This document shows positions 2,375 to 15,248 of a stretch of DNA of 16,255 bases, one piece after another. Source of the stretch: a virus; the UHGV virus genome UHGV-0338003. The stretch is one strand, 5' to 3'. The position numbers were made by a program, and so were the translations under genes. The stretch's first letter is position 1. The number at the start of each line of letters is the position of its first letter. A model generated the notes under the pieces. That model worked only from the letters and a program-made list of their open reading frames with translations. It made no database searches and was not told the DNA's origin.

Positions 2375-3184
2375 TCAATGAACGGTATCGAGCAGCTTTA
2401 ACAGCTCAGGGAATCGGGATTCGAAGAAATGCGGCTGCGTCTCACGCGGATTTGCGGGACTGGTAATGTTCTTGCCGAACATGCAACCTTTCGCTGTCAG
2501 CGACCAGAATTTTTTGATGTTGTTAATCGCGGTACGGCTGTATCGTTCGCGTTGTTCAACGATCCCCAGCTTCGCCATCTGGTGATATGCCTGATTAGCC
2601 GTCAGGCGGATACCATACTGCTTCAGCAGTGCACTCAGCGACAGCGTCGGGCGGCTTGAGCCATCAGGCGCGTCAGCAGGTGCATCAATGGCATAGCGCG
2701 GTGCCAGATTCGGTAAGCCAACAGCCTCCTGGAGTTTCTGACAGGCCCCAAGCACTGAAGAGTTAGACAGGTTTAACTCCCTGCGCATAAAGTCCAGCAG
2801 AATCACTCCAGCCTGCATCTTGTCAGCAGCCTGCCCGGATAATTTTTCCGGTACGCTGGTTACCATATCGAAAGTACGGATCACCTTCAGATGGAATGAC
2901 GGGCTGATCCACATTGCATAGGCATACACCAGTTCTTTGCAGACATACGTCCCCTGGTTATTTCCGCCATTAATGACGCTAACTGGTTGATTTTGTTCCA
3001 GAGGCGGAATTCCACCCTCGGTGAAAAGTTGTTCAATCAATTCACAGGTTTGCTTATTGGAGAGCCAGTATTTCGGGCGGTTTTTTTGTTCTCCCCCGGC
3101 TGCCCTGTGCAGATCGTTCAGGCTGTAACGCCCATAAGCATCACGACGAACTTCAATACCATCAATGACCATCAGATTATTCAT
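2375..3184 (-). CDS. KilA-N domain protein (antirepressor-like)
   Basis: 269 aa. N-terminus VIDGIEVRRDAYGRYSLNDLHRAAGG...KNRPKYWL matches the KilA-N signature. Confidence 0.7.
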   Translation of the reverse strand: MNNLMVIDGIEVRRDAYGRYSLNDLHRAAGGEQKNRPKYWLSNKQTCELIEQLFTEGGIPPLEQNQPVSVINGGNNQGTYVCKELVYAYAMWISPSFHLKVIRTFDMVTSVPEKLSGQAADKMQAGVILLDFMRRELNLSNSSVLGACQKLQEAVGLPNLAPRYAIDAPADAPDGSSRPTLSLSALLKQYGIRLTANQAYHQMAKLGIVEQRERYSRTAINNIKKFWSLTAKGCMFGKNITSPANPRETQPHFFESRFPELLKLLDTVH

Positions 3185-8889: not shown

Positions 8890-9357
8890 TTCTTTTCCTT
8901 TTGCGTTGTTGGGGATAACCAGATTAACCGAATCCTTGTTGTTGGGGAATAACCAGGTCCACCTCGCCTGATGTGGCTAAAAGCAGGCACATAACAGCTA
9001 AGTATTTTCAACCAGAGAGAATCCTTAGCGTTGTGGTGAATGCGGCTCAGCGCACGCGGGTTAAGGTTGAGGCTGACAGTCGACCTTCTGTGGATACCCA
9101 CCCGCCTGGTGTGCAACCTTCGCCAGGCACCGGGAGGCACCCGGCACCACAACTTTATGCTGTGTGTAGTCCTGGCGGTACCAGCTTGTACCCTTGCTTC
9201 CGGCTGGTACCGTCCTTTTTACAAAACAGAGAAGAGCATCACCGGACGACGGGCTCATAACCCAATCCATCCGGGCGGCAGTCACCGCAGGTGTTCTTCT
9301 CTGTTTTGTGGAGAAACTAACCGACCTTGCAGGGTCGATATGATGAGGAGCAGCAAA

Positions 9358-10610: not shown

Positions 10611-10738
10611 TTTCATTACTGCAAATGCCCCTGCGGGGGCATTTATGGAAACGTAATTGACTCAATAATCGCCTGAAGGCGAGGGTTTTCTTTAACCAAA
10701 ATTCAGCGCGGTGCAGCGCATATAACGTGGAGAACAAA

Positions 10739-11263
10739 ATGTCATTTATTAAAACTTTTTCCGGGAAACATTTTTATTATGACAGGATAAATAAAGACAA
10801 CATCGATATTAACGATATCGCGGTTTCCCTTTCAAATATCTGTCGCTTTGCCGGCCATCTTTCACACTTCTACAGCGTCGCCCAACATGCGGTGCTTTGC
10901 AGCCAGCTGGTACCGCAGGAATTTGCTTTTGAAGCGTTAATGCATGATGCAACAGAAGCGTATTGCCAGGACATCCCGGCTCCACTGAAACGCCTTCTTC
11001 CTGACTATAAACGGATGGAAGAAAAAATAGACGCCGTAATCCGTGAGAAATACGGGTTACCCCCGGTTATGAGTACGCCCGTGAAATATGCCGATCTCAT
11101 CATGCTGGCAACCGAACGCCGCGATCTCGGGCTTGATGATGGCTCTTTCTGGCCCGTACTGGAAGGTATCCCGGCAACAGAGATGTTCAAAGTTATTCCA
11201 CTGTCGCCAGGCCATACCTATGGGATGTTTATGGAACGCTTTAAAGAGTTAACTGAGTCGTAA
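10739..11263 (+). CDS. yfdR: HD-domain 5'-deoxynucleotidase (YfdR-like)
   Basis: HD-domain metal-binding residues present (H...H, then MHDATEAY). ATG at 10739 follows a GGAGAA RBS. The ORF track's GTG at 10727 would give 178 aa. Confidence 0.7.
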   Translation: MSFIKTFSGKHFYYDRINKDNIDINDIAVSLSNICRFAGHLSHFYSVAQHAVLCSQLVPQEFAFEALMHDATEAYCQDIPAPLKRLLPDYKRMEEKIDAVIREKYGLPPVMSTPVKYADLIMLATERRDLGLDDGSFWPVLEGIPATEMFKVIPLSPGHTYGMFMERFKELTES

Positions 11264-11371
11264 AAATCAGCACGTACGAATTCAAACTCTGCCATAAAAG
11301 AACATATAAGTAATTTATTAACATATAGATATAGGTTATATTACAAATTGAAAAATTATTGGAGAGCAACA

Positions 11372-12238
11372 ATGAATCAAAATCCATTCTCATTCTATGA
11401 CTTTCTTGGATATTTAATACCAGGTGGTTTTTTTATCCTATTAATGTATTTCTGTGGTTTGACATTCGATCTAGATATTGTTATTGACTTAAGTGAATTG
11501 CTCAGAGGTCAAAGTCAAATCTTTGGCATTTTGAACTACGCTTCAATAGTTATTATATCTTATATAGCTGGACATTTTATTTCTATCACGTCAGCATTTT
11601 TTATCGAAAAATACATGAATAAAGAATTAGGATATCCTTCCAAATATCTATTTAAAAAATTGATAGATACCTCAGAAAGCATTTGTAGCCCATCATGCGA
11701 TGAGAGAAGCGCTGATAAAAAAACAAAAATAAAGAATCGCATAATCAAATGCGTATTATGTCCAATAATACTATGGGATTTTATAACACAAAAACTATGT
11801 TATTCTCAATCTCTACCATTTCATTTAGCTAATACAACATGGTTAATGATCAAAGAAGGTTATGAGAAAAAGTTCATAACAAATCGCCAATTATTACAAG
11901 ATAAAAACGGACTTGATGATGATCTCTTCAGATTGGCATATCATTATGTTTATGAGTTTTCAAAACAACATCAAACAAAAATTCAAAACTATGTTGCATT
12001 ATATGGTTTTTGCAGAAACATATGTTTAATCTTTATAATTTCATTTTGGGTATCAGTTCCAACCTTTATTTATCGATTATGTACTCATAGTGATTATCTT
12101 TATAGTTTACTTTCAATAATGCTTAGCTTTTTCTTCGTCTATGTTTTCTATGTTGGTTTTGTTAAATTTTATAGAAGATATACTTTAGAAGTATTAATGG
12201 CATTTGCTGTACTTCAAAGTAACGACACTATTCGTTAA
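11372..12238 (+). CDS. hypothetical integral membrane protein, AT-rich moron
   Basis: 288 aa from the ATG at 11372, with GGAGAG 5 nt upstream (track start 11348 is TTG). Hydrophobic helices at both ends (GYLIPGGFFILLMYFCGL, IVIISYIAGHFISITSAFFI, ICLIFIISFWVSVPTFIY, LSIMLSFFFVYVFYVGFV) around a soluble middle. Much lower GC than its neighbours. Confidence 0.55.
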   Translation: MNQNPFSFYDFLGYLIPGGFFILLMYFCGLTFDLDIVIDLSELLRGQSQIFGILNYASIVIISYIAGHFISITSAFFIEKYMNKELGYPSKYLFKKLIDTSESICSPSCDERSADKKTKIKNRIIKCVLCPIILWDFITQKLCYSQSLPFHLANTTWLMIKEGYEKKFITNRQLLQDKNGLDDDLFRLAYHYVYEFSKQHQTKIQNYVALYGFCRNICLIFIISFWVSVPTFIYRLCTHSDYLYSLLSIMLSFFFVYVFYVGFVKFYRRYTLEVLMAFAVLQSNDTIR

Positions 12239-12279
12239 TAATGTTGCTCCCGTGTGCAGACGGGATAATGGAGAAACGT

Positions 12280-12486
12280 ATGCTGAACCTCGATTGTGTT
12301 CCTATCTCAACTTATTGCAAAGAAACTGGCGAAACTCCTGAAGCAATAAACAAACGTGTACAGCGCGGTGTTTGGCGTGAAGGTGTTCAGGTTTTAAAGG
12401 TTGAAGGCGTTAAGGAGAGGTGGATTGATCTTAGTGAGGTTGCAAAATGGGCCAGACAAAACTGCTCAAACTACCGCGCGGCGTAA
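12280..12486 (+). CDS. xis: excisionase-like small DNA-binding protein (Xis)
   Basis: 68 aa from the ATG at 12280, with GGAGA 5 nt upstream. Immediately upstream of and overlapping int. Basic protein with Trp residues typical of small Xis proteins. Called mainly from position. Confidence 0.45.
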   Translation: MLNLDCVPISTYCKETGETPEAINKRVQRGVWREGVQVLKVEGVKERWIDLSEVAKWARQNCSNYRAA

Positions 12487-13619
12487 CAATCAGGAAACAC
12501 CGCCAGGGAGAAACGATCAATATAACTTTCACCTACAAAGGAGTTAGATGTCGTGAGCCGCTTTCCAATCTGGAAGTAACACCAAAGAACATTAAATACG
12601 CCGAGCGTACACTCGGCGAAATCCATAATAAGATCGAAAGGGGAACATTCATTTATGCAGAATATTTTCCCCGTTCTGCTCGTTTGAAAATTTTTGGTAA
12701 TGCTGCTGCAGGCAAAACGGTAAAGATGTACCTGGACGAATATCTTGAAATCTGCGAAACAAGAAAACTTTCACCCTCTACGATTGGTGGCTATAAAAAA
12801 TGCCGTAGTGCGTTAGCCTCACTTCACATTTGCCCTGCAAGTGAATTAACACCAGCAACCCTGAAAGCGTGGATTCAAAATCAGAAAACGACCTTAAAAA
12901 CAATTCGCAACCAGTTATCTTTCCTGCGGTCAGCACTTGATGAAGCCGTGACCGATGGGGTACTTCAAATTAACCCCGTATCGTTAGTAACAGCTTCGCG
13001 CTACCAAAGTGATAAGTCAGAAGCAGAAAGCAGCTACGTAGTTGATCCGCTATCACCAGCAGAAGTTGATGCATTACTAGCAGCAGCCGGAAACAAACAA
13101 TGGGAAAATCTGTTCCGGTTCGCTATACATACAGGCCTGCGTAGTTCTGAATTATGTGCCCTTCGATGGCGTGATATCGACTTTGTTGGAAAAACTGCCC
13201 ATGTCCAGAGCGCAAGTGTTGTCGGTGTTATCAAAGGGACAAAGACAAAAGCAGGTACTCGGAAAGTTGAACTGACAGAAGAGGCAATGTTGGCGCTGAT
13301 AAATCAGAAGCCATTTACATTCATGAAGGATACTACTGTCTTTGAAGATCCAAAGACCAATAAGCCTTGGGCAAGTGCTGATGCAATCAGGAAAAAAGCA
13401 TGGGTGCCAACATTGCGAAAAGCAGGTATTCGTTACAGAAATCCATATCAAACTAGGCATACATTCGCCACCCGCCATATCAGCCGGGGAGCAAACCTGT
13501 TTTGGCTTGCAGCTCAAATGGGGCATAAAGGGCCGGAAATGTTATTTCGTCATTATGGTTCATATTTAAAGGAATATGACGGTAATACGACCAGCAATAT
13601 CACAAAAAAAGCCACTTAA
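12447..13619 (+). CDS. int: tyrosine recombinase, lambda-family phage integrase
   Basis: 390 aa. C-terminal catalytic signature: R in AIHTGLRSSEL, HTFATRHISRG, and RHYGSY with the nucleophile Tyr. Adjacent to the att-like tmRNA fragment. Confidence 0.9.
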   Translation: MGQTKLLKLPRGVTIRKHRQGETINITFTYKGVRCREPLSNLEVTPKNIKYAERTLGEIHNKIERGTFIYAEYFPRSARLKIFGNAAAGKTVKMYLDEYLEICETRKLSPSTIGGYKKCRSALASLHICPASELTPATLKAWIQNQKTTLKTIRNQLSFLRSALDEAVTDGVLQINPVSLVTASRYQSDKSEAESSYVVDPLSPAEVDALLAAAGNKQWENLFRFAIHTGLRSSELCALRWRDIDFVGKTAHVQSASVVGVIKGTKTKAGTRKVELTEEAMLALINQKPFTFMKDTTVFEDPKTNKPWASADAIRKKAWVPTLRKAGIRYRNPYQTRHTFATRHISRGANLFWLAAQMGHKGPEMLFRHYGSYLKEYDGNTTSNITKKAT

Positions 13620-13632: not shown

Positions 13633-14016
13633 TTAGGAGGCTCTCGATTTAAGCATTTCCGTACACTTAGCAAAGAGCCTCTCAGTTGTTAGAATCGCAA
13701 CTTCAGACTGTTTAGAAGTGACCGATTGATCAAGTCGATAGTCTGCAACAATCCTCTGAGCTTTAAGTTGACTCAGGATAAAACTAATCCCTTTTAGATA
13801 TCTAGCTTCATATACTTCACTTCCTCTTGAAGCATCGCCCTGCAAATAATTGATTAGCCCCTGATGACTGTCTTTCGGCCCGTTTACCATACAAGGCAAG
13901 ACATGATGGTAAGCGCCATAGTAGGATCTTGCTATAGCATTTCGATAGCCGATTTCGTCATTACGTTGATGACAGTCTTTTGCAAAACCGAGAAAATCTT
14001 GACTATTAACCGGCAT
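13633..14016 (-). CDS. HEPN-like domain protein (candidate effector or toxin)
   Basis: 127 aa from the ATG at 14016, with GGAGGG 6 nt upstream. N-terminal helix AKDCHQRNDEIGYRNAIARSYYGAYHHV and a later R-x4-DY (QRIVADYRL) fit the general HEPN pattern. Overlaps the upstream gene by 11 bp. Confidence 0.45.
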   Translation of the reverse strand: MPVNSQDFLGFAKDCHQRNDEIGYRNAIARSYYGAYHHVLPCMVNGPKDSHQGLINYLQGDASRGSEVYEARYLKGISFILSQLKAQRIVADYRLDQSVTSKQSEVAILTTERLFAKCTEMLKSRAS

Positions 14017-14821
14017 GTGCAACCCTCCGGGTAATCAGACCTAATTCGGAGATAGCATTCTGCTCAATATGTGTGTCTTTACATTCAAACCAAACAGCAA
14101 AATCTTTACCGACTAAACAATCGTGCTCAGCCATTGAAAAAGCAAGCTCAATATTCATATCAGCGATTTGTTCAGCATCAGAAGACTTTGTCATGAATAC
14201 AATCGCATTCACTTTCTCTTCCGAAATATTATAAAAACGCATTCCCGAAAGATGAACCTTCTGAGAATCCATGACATTGGCTACATTATTGAAAATAAGT
14301 TCATATTCTAAACCAGAAAGATCGGCACGTTGCTTAAAGGATTCGACCTGGGAAACAACTTCATCAAAATTGTTGTCCATTTTTTCAGGCTCCTTATCTC
14401 CGAACAATTTAGAGTATGACTGGAAATACTTCTCCGCCAACGCCATCTTCCCCATAAAGAGGGAGTTTTCATAAGCTTGAAGATAAATAAACGGGGATAT
14501 GAAGCTTTCAGCAAGCTTAATGCTTGTTTCAAAGCTTTTCTTCAACGTACCGTAATCTGACAAGAAAACAAGAAAATTCTTTGCAACAACCTCATTATGG
14601 CATACCTGCAAGGAACGCTCAAAGAAGCCTATCGCCTCATTCACTTGGCCATGTGCACCATAGACCAACGCTAAAAGATAGTCCTCAGAGACAGGATCTC
14701 TAAGTGCTTCAATCTCACGTAACATCCTTCTAAAGCTAAAGTCATCAATCCTCACTCCATCTTTGAGGTATTTAGTTAGCCGCGCGCTAATAACTGATGC
14801 TTTTTTTGCTGGCTGCAACAT
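14006..14821 (-). CDS. hypothetical protein, upstream partner of the HEPN-like gene
   Basis: 271 aa. ATG at 14821. Predicted mostly helical. No nucleotidyltransferase motif (GS...D.D) and no recognised family. Confidence 0.5.
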   Translation of the reverse strand: MLQPAKKASVISARLTKYLKDGVRIDDFSFRRMLREIEALRDPVSEDYLLALVYGAHGQVNEAIGFFERSLQVCHNEVVAKNFLVFLSDYGTLKKSFETSIKLAESFISPFIYLQAYENSLFMGKMALAEKYFQSYSKLFGDKEPEKMDNNFDEVVSQVESFKQRADLSGLEYELIFNNVANVMDSQKVHLSGMRFYNISEEKVNAIVFMTKSSDAEQIADMNIELAFSMAEHDCLVGKDFAVWFECKDTHIEQNAISELGLITRRVAHAG

Positions 14822-15248
14822 TAAAAACCTTATCTTACAAATAGTTGGTAATGATGTTGAATTATTTTTTGTTCTTTATGGCTAATAAGATTACATGAAG
14901 GGACAACTTCTGACCACCTTAGAAAACACTCACTTTAGTAACAAGAGTCAATAATATTGTTGACAAATCACAAAAAAACAAACTTATCCAAAACAATCTG
15001 GTTTATCACAAAGCCTCTGTGCATAAATCTGTGCATAACATCATTTTTACACACATTTTTTTATAAAAATATTTTTTAGCAAAAAATGCTATCTATCTCC
15101 GAAACTGCAACCACAAACCATTAATTCCAAATGAAACTATTTTAAAATAAATAGTAAGACAGTAACAGGACAGAAAAAGTTCCGCAAAAGAGCCGCTTGT
15201 AAAATCAACAATATTTGGCTATTTAAATTCAATGAATTACATAACTAT

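Follow-up and report, generated by a model that had tools for sequence, protein, structure and literature searches.

An AT-rich exchangeable cassette in a lambdoid prophage encodes a predicted four-pass membrane protein with distant similarity to the CRISPR accessory protein Csx27

What does a lone, very AT-rich membrane protein gene contribute to a prophage that keeps it immediately upstream of its excision and integration genes? This question is raised by UHGV virus genome UHGV-0338003, of which a stretch of 16,255 nucleotides (nt), here called the window, was analyzed. The window represents a lambdoid, CPS-53-like prophage of Escherichia coli with the gene order yfdP, yfdQ, yfdR, an open reading frame (ORF) for a protein of 288 amino acids (aa), excisionase (xis), and tyrosine integrase (int); the 288-aa gene lies at the distal end of the early-left operon, in the same orientation and directly 5′ of xis-int. 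A first-pass annotation, made from the sequence alone, had raised the possibility that its product is a superinfection exclusion or abortive infection (Abi) factor. Our analysis indicates that the gene is carried as an exchangeable cassette and that the protein belongs to a widespread family with an apparent distant relationship to Csx27, an accessory membrane protein of type VI-B CRISPR systems.

The 288-aa ORF is a genuine gene under purifying selection. It runs on the + strand from an ATG at position 11372, preceded at a distance of 7 nt by a GGAG at 11361-11364, to a TAA stop at 12236-12238, and its start Met is supported by the N-termini of family members, which line up there. RefSeq makes the same call in E. 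coli strain 1500, where the DNA is identical and the product (WP_001075212.1) is named 'hypothetical protein'. Compared with alleles that are 69-85% identical, the ratio of nonsynonymous to synonymous substitution rates (dN/dS) was 0.16-0.23. When 1.84 billion representative proteins were searched with a profile, homologs appeared in 949 clusters (defined at 50% identity) at an E value of ≤1e-3 and in 490 at ≤1e-10, nearly all of the 949 being full length (270-300 aa).

Kyte-Doolittle analysis resolved four hydrophobic segments at residues of about 10-31, 52-79, 207-237, and 244-266, with a K/R-rich middle of ~127 aa (residues 80-206) between the two pairs. The ORF contains 28.4% GC (21% at third codon positions), compared with 44-47% in the flanking yfdQ, yfdR, xis, and int genes and a mean of 46.4% for the whole window. 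The first-pass annotation had thus described the gene correctly as an ORF between a yfdR-like gene and xis, with paired hydrophobic helices at both termini around a middle of roughly 130 aa and a far higher AT content than its flanks. The structure prediction that it had proposed as a check was run with AlphaFold2 on 83 aligned, diverse relatives (identity to the query of 27-78%, mean per column of 32%) and gave a confident, all-helical model with a predicted local distance difference test (pLDDT) score of 90 and a predicted template modeling score of 0.89; an earlier run with 15 close homologs (pLDDT of 71) is superseded. In the model, long helices span residues 8-31, 52-86, 198-237, and 243-287, with a helical domain between the pairs and a low-confidence linker at about 101-115.

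Ten positions are invariant in this alignment (F6, D10, Y14, Y64, G67, S74, E79, H191, R215, and K265), and a further 27 are conserved at ≥90%, H68, E195, H200, and K203 among them. Conservation falls into five motifs in all: NPFSxYDFLGYxxPG; YxxGHxxSxxSSxxxE; YPSxYL (residues 88-93), which the middle domain holds together with P131 and the variable, low-confidence linker; DxFRxxYHYxxExxxxHxxKxQNYVALYGFxR, whose first part occupies residues 184-206 and which then runs on into transmembrane helix (TM) 3; and FxKFYRRxxLExxM, which starts in TM4 (F263, invariant K265) and extends into the C-terminal tail. Because the middle and the tail are rich in K/R, the positive-inside rule predicts an N-in/C-in topology with both of these parts in the cytoplasm. 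The predicted cytoplasmic halves of all four helices carry 2.7-3.5 bits of information per column, whereas the halves and loops predicted to be periplasmic reach only 0.3-1.2 bits, and the functional site would therefore face the inner leaflet or cytoplasm and not the periplasm. Judged from sequence position and not from model coordinates, D10, H68, S74, E79, H191, E195, H200, K203, N206, R215, K265, R268, and E273 appear to cluster at this interface.

Conventional searches returned little for this protein. Neither Pfam (at E≤10) nor NCBIfam had a match, a sequence-profile search of the PDB gave nothing at E≤10, and Foldseek found nothing at E≤0.001 in the PDB or BFVD (best E value of 0.4 in each). 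The sole PHROG match was phrog_12528, of unknown function, all database names read 'hypothetical' or 'uncharacterized', and no paper naming WP_001075212 was found. An Oac/Gtr-type lysogenic conversion protein was considered and rejected, as there was no similarity to those families. Homology to a housekeeping transporter, which would have spoken against the first-pass annotation, was looked for and not found, and its remark that the protein has no recognizable motif agrees with the results from Pfam, NCBIfam, the PDB, and Foldseek. In the remote-homology search it had suggested, the PADLOC model of Csx27 (PDLC01605) matched the protein with an E value of 1.4e-5, collinearly from residue 6 to 268 over positions 4-188 of the 206 in the model.

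This match extends to the family, as 63 of the 83 diverse relatives matched the Csx27 model (E<0.01; best E value of 2.2e-10) and 22 matched the sister PADLOC model tm_4. Ten reversed sequences, in which composition and hydrophobic blocks are kept, matched neither model at E≤10, and the similarity is therefore sequence specific. It points to a distant relationship of the family with Csx27 and is one of PADLOC model scores and coordinates, not of a residue-level alignment or a bona fide Csx27 sequence. Both proteins have four predicted transmembrane helices, borne out here by hydropathy and by the AlphaFold2 helices, and both are tied to immunity loci. In contrast to Csx27, the window protein exceeds the model by about 80 residues, with the surplus lying, by coordinates, between the helix pairs; its gene stands alone and, in enterobacteria, is phage borne. 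The annotated 27-kb region around it contains prophage genes only and neither cas13b nor a CRISPR array, and Cas13b is not among the listed PADLOC matches of neighbors in 39 other loci. The Csx27 family is said to have been described by Makarova and colleagues in 2019 as expansive, with four TMs and links to competence, ubiquitin-like, and DNA-modification genes. Partners of this kind (natural transformation, ubiquitin-system, and WYL-HTH) were not encountered beside our family, where any Pfam family outside those listed occurs in at most 1 of 145 neighbors. Literature on Csx27 together with prophages consisted, judging by titles and abstracts, of general papers on CRISPR, anti-CRISPR, and defense.

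The gene sits in a segment that related prophages exchange. In a blastn comparison with the sister prophage in NZ_CP081192, homology was confined to positions 10700-11258 and 12249-13000 of the window. This prophage and another in NZ_CP122872 have an identical xis protein and an int region that is ~97% identical, and their slot holds yfdS (120 aa) and a 71-aa gene on an insert of 610 bp with 47% GC, compared with the 990-bp AT-rich segment of the window. Since homology to the sister prophages ends at 11258 and restarts at 12249, positions 11259-12248 constitute an exchangeable cassette. The left boundary recurs more widely, as yfdR is common to about 2,970 of the 5,426 complete E. coli genomes and most sampled rows lose homology at 11258. 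The comparison across related prophages that had been called for thus places the gene in an accessory slot, where it is swapped for yfdS and the 71-aa gene; the first-pass annotation was right to see a separate AT-rich unit, although the segment replaces other genes and is not a simple insertion. No target duplications or transposon-like ends were found to flank the cassette, the repeats around it being short, AT rich, and attributable to chance, and the window contains no tRNA at the attachment end. The hairpin at the right boundary has a near-identical copy, CCCGTGTGCAGCGGG, in the cassette-free sister prophages at the point where homology restarts. Because it is kept in prophages without the cassette, it is part of the xis leader; its role may be regulatory, or it may mark a boundary of recombination.

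The same slot is used in other enterobacterial prophages, where alleles that are 48-85% identical immediately precede a small gene for recombination directionality, with an integrase next. This xis-int position was seen in Klebsiella phage P7641, in Enterobacter prophages, and in 44 of the 51 integrase-containing IMG/VR loci, and the alleles lie next to three unrelated xis types (phrog_2917, PrtN/PyocinActivator, and DUF4224). The exact protein WP_001075212.1 occurs on at least 1,000 public contigs. Among the complete E. coli genomes, 181 of 5,426 carry an allele that is ≥95% identical, 27 carry one that is 80-90% identical, and about 284 carry a more distant paralog; other alleles were found in prophages of Shigella, Salmonella, Citrobacter, Klebsiella, and Enterobacter. 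In E. coli and Shigella, a prophage remnant near zur/dinF/lexA (loci L087-L092) holds an allele with 78% identity 5′ of a PrtN-type gene, and no adjacent integrase was called in it. There, the PrtN-type gene is followed by three small minus-strand genes and then a SocA_Panacea-domain gene; the contig index lists the 78% allele in 2,138 blocks. Two Enterobacter prophages with the four-TM gene (L095 and L097) also carry a SieB-family gene (PF14163) between the repressor and the early-left genes, and the two genes would not duplicate a single function.

More broadly, loci of relatives come from Gamma-, Beta-, and Deltaproteobacteria, many Bacteroidota, Firmicutes, Chloroflexi, Acidobacteria, Gemmatimonadota, and Spirochaetes. 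The family gene is richer in AT than its flanks in 70 of 71 diverse loci (median difference of −9 GC points, reaching −27 in Pseudomonas), which thus represents a family-wide signature of horizontal mobility. A tyrosine recombinase was present within 8 kb in only 11 of 78 diverse loci, and the prophage location is therefore a feature of the enterobacterial clade. Clustering by blastp revealed no conserved partner gene, with sharing seen only among near-identical genomes, and the commonest Pfam family accounted for 3 of the 145 neighbors located one or two positions away in 39 loci. The gene would therefore work alone or with ubiquitous host components. Strong PADLOC matches within two genes included type I and type II restriction-modification systems, a CBASS cyclase and phospholipase effector, Old, the Lamassu protein LmuA, AbiEi, the PARIS protein AriA, Mad3/8, and others. 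The 145 proteins at these positions matched 292 PADLOC models (E≤1e-8), compared with 55 models matched by 105 proteins at a distance of six or seven positions, a crude contrast in that the models are redundant and the genes come from a greedy ORF caller; the control positions, too, matched some defense models (DpdF, ThsB, and PsyrT). The neighborhood is consistent with residence in defense islands.

A further indication comes from P2-like prophages of sequence type 131 and others, which carry a paralog of the 288-aa protein between portal gene Q and replication gene A. This gpA-gpQ locus is a defense hotspot (Rousset et al. 2022, Cell Host Microbe), and Table S5B of that study lists system #3, 'DUF4760', with 1,102 occurrences and the description '1 TM in protein 1, 4 TM in protein 2'. 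It is the third most common system of the P2 hotspot and stands in the table without a functional note (Rousset et al. 2022). Protein 2 (280 aa) is 42% identical to the window protein over 287 positions (blastp, E value of 2e-64) and is likewise cargo in a phage diversity/defense hotspot. The two differ in setting, as the window gene occupies the yfdR-xis slot of a lambdoid CPS-53-like prophage and not gpA-gpQ, and in company: the one-TM DUF4760 protein stood 5′ of the P2 version in 10 of 10 loci, whereas the lambdoid alleles are solo and tblastn found no DUF4760 in the window. DUF4760 was confined to the P2-type loci (L003, L151-L157, L173, and L174). The protein itself (165 aa, one TM, phrog_2284; 5464-5961 in L003, and in the IMG/VR loci L151-L157) is encoded 39 bp 5′ of the paralog and had no PADLOC match, and the literature on DUF4760 amounted to one unrelated paper. 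Together with the P2 paralog, it possibly forms a two-gene variant of the system.

The first-pass annotation therefore holds as far as anatomy and accessory status are concerned: the gene is exchangeable cargo, carried distally in the early-left operon directly before xis-int, and occupies the same slot in other prophages. As for function, the evidence is circumstantial, and the relation to Csx27, the P2-hotspot paralog, and the defense-gene neighbors would favor a role in defense or exclusion. The protein as a whole can tentatively be read as a stand-alone membrane effector of defense or exclusion that benefits the lysogen, a reading to which we give somewhat less than an even chance; about half of this weight falls to an Abi-like membrane lesion specifically. 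In such a mechanism, the conserved site facing the cytoplasm would sense or bind something made or delivered during infection. The helical bundle, which is probably oligomeric, would then perturb the inner membrane by an ion or energy leak or by blocking the passage of nucleic acids, and the infection would thereby be aborted or excluded. As there is no partner gene, sensing and effecting would both reside in one polypeptide.

Several observations weigh against a defense effector. A scan of the leader at 11264-11371 for the sigma-70 consensus found no site, so that the upstream region, which the first-pass annotation had rightly called AT rich and the gene's own, revealed no promoter of its own; no terminator was detected between yfdR and the ORF either, the scan yielding one weak hairpin inside the ORF. 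The early-left operon, a weak AT-rich promoter, or both may therefore drive the gene, and it may be made only after induction. In E. coli, Csx27 lowers Cas13b interference, and Csx27 fusions with red fluorescent protein were not membrane localized there (bioRxiv 10.1101/092577). System #3 is not among the cloned systems in the portions available of the supplementary files of Rousset et al. 2022, and we found no paper in which the family was tested for exclusion or abortive infection. An enzyme could explain the invariant Ser, His, Asp, and Glu residues equally well. The positional basis of the polar cluster and the crudeness of the neighborhood contrast belong on this side as well.

Superinfection exclusion by a block of DNA entry is exemplified by P22 SieA, HK97 gp15, T4 Imm, and lactococcal Sie2009, and the 288-aa protein might be strictly of this kind, an inner-membrane protein that, in the lysogen or early after induction, constitutively blocks incoming phage DNA without cell death. 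It resembles P22 SieA and SieB, HK97 gp15, T4 Imm, and Sie2009 in being a single, prophage-encoded membrane protein in an accessory slot, and SieB genes are present elsewhere in related prophages. A conceptual link to DNA passage is offered by the prediction, attributed to Makarova et al. 2019 in PMC7642515 and PMC11662929, that Csx27 family members are membrane channels for single-stranded DNA (ssDNA). We nevertheless consider strict exclusion unlikely. The protein has no homology to SieA, SieB, Imm, gp15, Sie2009, or any other such family in Pfam (E≤10) or PHROGs; its conserved face is predicted to be cytoplasmic rather than periplasmic, the periplasmic loops and outer helix halves being the least conserved; and members of the family occur in Gram-negative as well as Gram-positive phyla and lie for the most part outside prophages. 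Such an unconserved periplasmic face and a cross-phylum spread outside phages argue against the recognition of a particular phage injection apparatus.

Alternatively, a Ser/His/acid site at the inner leaflet could modify or cleave a lipid, a lipid-linked envelope precursor, or a membrane-anchored protein, and the outcome of this membrane-embedded enzyme would be lysogenic conversion or stress adaptation instead of a pore. The invariance of D10, S74, E79, H191, R215, and K265 in the 83 sequences and the high conservation of H68, E195, H200, and K203 would suit such an enzyme, as would the concentration of conserved polar residues at one membrane face and the fact that the gene stands alone. No enzyme family was matched by sequence or fold, however, and a patchy, AT-rich, defense-island-like distribution is unusual for envelope-modifying enzymes, which in such phages usually lie beyond attP/int and belong to Gtr or acyltransferase families. 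These points make the enzyme quite unlikely in our estimation.

The gene may instead serve the phage itself in an early function, such as host takeover, lysis timing or membrane energetics at induction, or a Csx27-like dampening of host immunity. Its co-orientation with the early-left operon, with no terminator after yfdR and no promoter of its own detected, would fit this view, as would the repression of Cas13b interference by Csx27. To our knowledge, however, type VI CRISPR is absent from E. coli. Most family members, moreover, lie outside recognizable prophages, and the slot holds unrelated genes (yfdS and the 71-aa ORF) in prophages whose architecture is intact; since these are tolerated, the 288-aa gene is dispensable for the phage cycle. 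Overall, a phage-serving role seems improbable. A spurious or decaying frame in AT-rich junk DNA can be considered refuted, as AT-rich DNA easily yields long ORFs only when stop codons are avoided, nothing else supports it, and the low dN/dS, the invariant motifs of full-length homologs from hundreds of clusters and many phyla, and the confident AlphaFold2 model all speak against it.

If the defense reading is extended from the window to the whole family, the latter could be a previously unrecognized single-gene immune module that occurs across phyla and has been captured by temperate phages, that is, a Csx27-homologous sensor-effector. In this proposal, which we regard as doubtful though worth stating, the Ser/His/acid site would detect infection or incoming nucleic acid and gate a membrane lesion or a block of DNA passage. 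Csx27 would then have been domesticated from within a far wider family of membrane-immunity proteins, and the P2-hotspot cargo that ranks third in frequency would acquire a function. The Csx27 family as such was already known, the gene family is visible in databases, and the paralog is listed among P2-hotspot cargo. New in our analysis are the link of a widespread, stand-alone family of 280-300 aa to Csx27, its recognition as an exchangeable cassette between yfdR and xis in lambdoid prophages, an AT bias across the family, and the pattern of cytoplasm-facing conservation. If the action of the protein were shown, a function would be assigned to a common prophage moron that is everywhere annotated as 'hypothetical', and E. 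coli would offer experimentally tractable access to Csx27 and its relatives, which have awaited a biochemical role since 2017; a stand-alone membrane protein might also be added to the single-gene defense systems. An outcome in favor of an enzyme or of a factor that serves the phage would likewise correct the present speculation that the family provides a 'channel for ssDNA'.

Table 1. Coordinates of the cassette, the 288-aa gene with its protein regions, and flanking features in the window
Feature	Position	Strand	Basis or remark
Left flank, yfdR-like HD-domain 5′-deoxynucleotidase	10727..11263	+	Shared with about 2,970 E. coli genomes up to 11258
AT-rich exchangeable cassette, 990 bp, about 28% GC; yfdS and 71-aa gene in its place in sister prophages	11259..12248		blastn, GC
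AT-rich leader, 108 bp, 25.9% GC, with GGAG at 11361-11364	11264..11371	+	Composition, promoter/terminator scan
Coding sequence, predicted 288-aa four-pass inner-membrane protein of Csx27-like family	11372..12238	+	WP_001075212.1, UniProt A0A0B1MB33, phrog_12528
Residues 1-31, motif NPFSxYDFLGYxxPG (D10 and Y14 invariant) into TM1	11372..11464	+	Alignment, hydropathy
Residues 52-79, TM2; invariant Y64, G67, S74, and E79 and near-invariant H68, predicted cytoplasmic half	11525..11608	+	
Residues 80-206, K/R-rich helical domain, predicted cytoplasmic	11609..11989	+	Hydropathy, AlphaFold2, alignment
Residues 207-266, TM3 (YVALYGFxR, R215 invariant), short unconserved outer loop, TM4	11990..12169	+	
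Residues 267-288, C-terminal tail, predicted cytoplasmic	12170..12235	+	Alignment
Hairpin TCCCGT-GTGCAG-ACGGGA	12248..12265	+	Exactly at right cassette boundary, xis leader
Right flank, excisionase, 68 aa, overlaps int start	12280..12486	+	phrog_2917, E value of 7.7e-44
Tyrosine integrase	12447..13619	+	Annotation

Apart from the cassette, the window and its surroundings revealed several features of their own. Directly after the integrase stop, two overlapping minus-strand genes at 13633-14022 (129 aa) and 14006-14821 (271 aa) match phrog_5176 and phrog_17809, both PHROGs of unknown function; they had no Pfam match save a sub-threshold TPR and no PADLOC match. One sister prophage has an AAA ATPase at the position of this pair, and the int end seems to have a second variable slot for cargo at 13633-14821. 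A stretch of 30% GC at 14800-15200 is followed by a second integrase-domain gene that runs from about 15446 to the window end (16747-17976 in locus L001), and past the window end lie a gene pair of a response-regulator receiver and an ATP-binding protein and an IS3 element; this arrangement suggests tandem integrative elements at one site. A KilA-N domain protein on the minus strand (2375-3184) matched the PADLOC candidate PDC-S22 weakly (E value of 1.4e-6), over about 35 residues only, and the match probably reflects a shared domain and not a system. RefSeq annotates a frameshifted pseudogene at 9033-9343 (10334-10644 in L001), just 5′ of yfdP, the early-left operon being otherwise intact.

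Besides Csx27, the P2 system, and the exclusion proteins, two groups of known systems deserve comparison. With the stator proteins MotA, PomA, and ExbB and with ZorA, the window protein shares the order of TM1-TM2, a large cytoplasmic domain, TM3-TM4, and a C-terminal tail. It differs from the stators in that no MotB/ExbD-like partner is present beside its gene. Chains of MotA and PomA were among the weak Foldseek matches, which lacked significance (E values of 0.9-3, probability of 0.13-0.33, and TM-score of about 0.2); homology to MotA or ZorA was rejected, and the likeness is one of analogy only.

The second group comprises small helical inner-membrane proteins that depolarize or permeabilize the membrane on infection, such as lambda RexB (four TMs) and KwaA of Kiwa (four TMs). 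Csx28 is another membrane effector of this type (bioRxiv 10.1101/2021.11.02.466367). RexB, KwaA, and Csx28 depend on separate sensors, namely RexA, KwaB, and Cas13b, whereas the window gene has no conserved neighbor, and the window protein showed no match to them in PADLOC and no similarity in fold. As small helical inner-membrane proteins from prophages and defense loci, they nonetheless resemble it in kind, and it is on their action that the mechanism proposed here is modeled.

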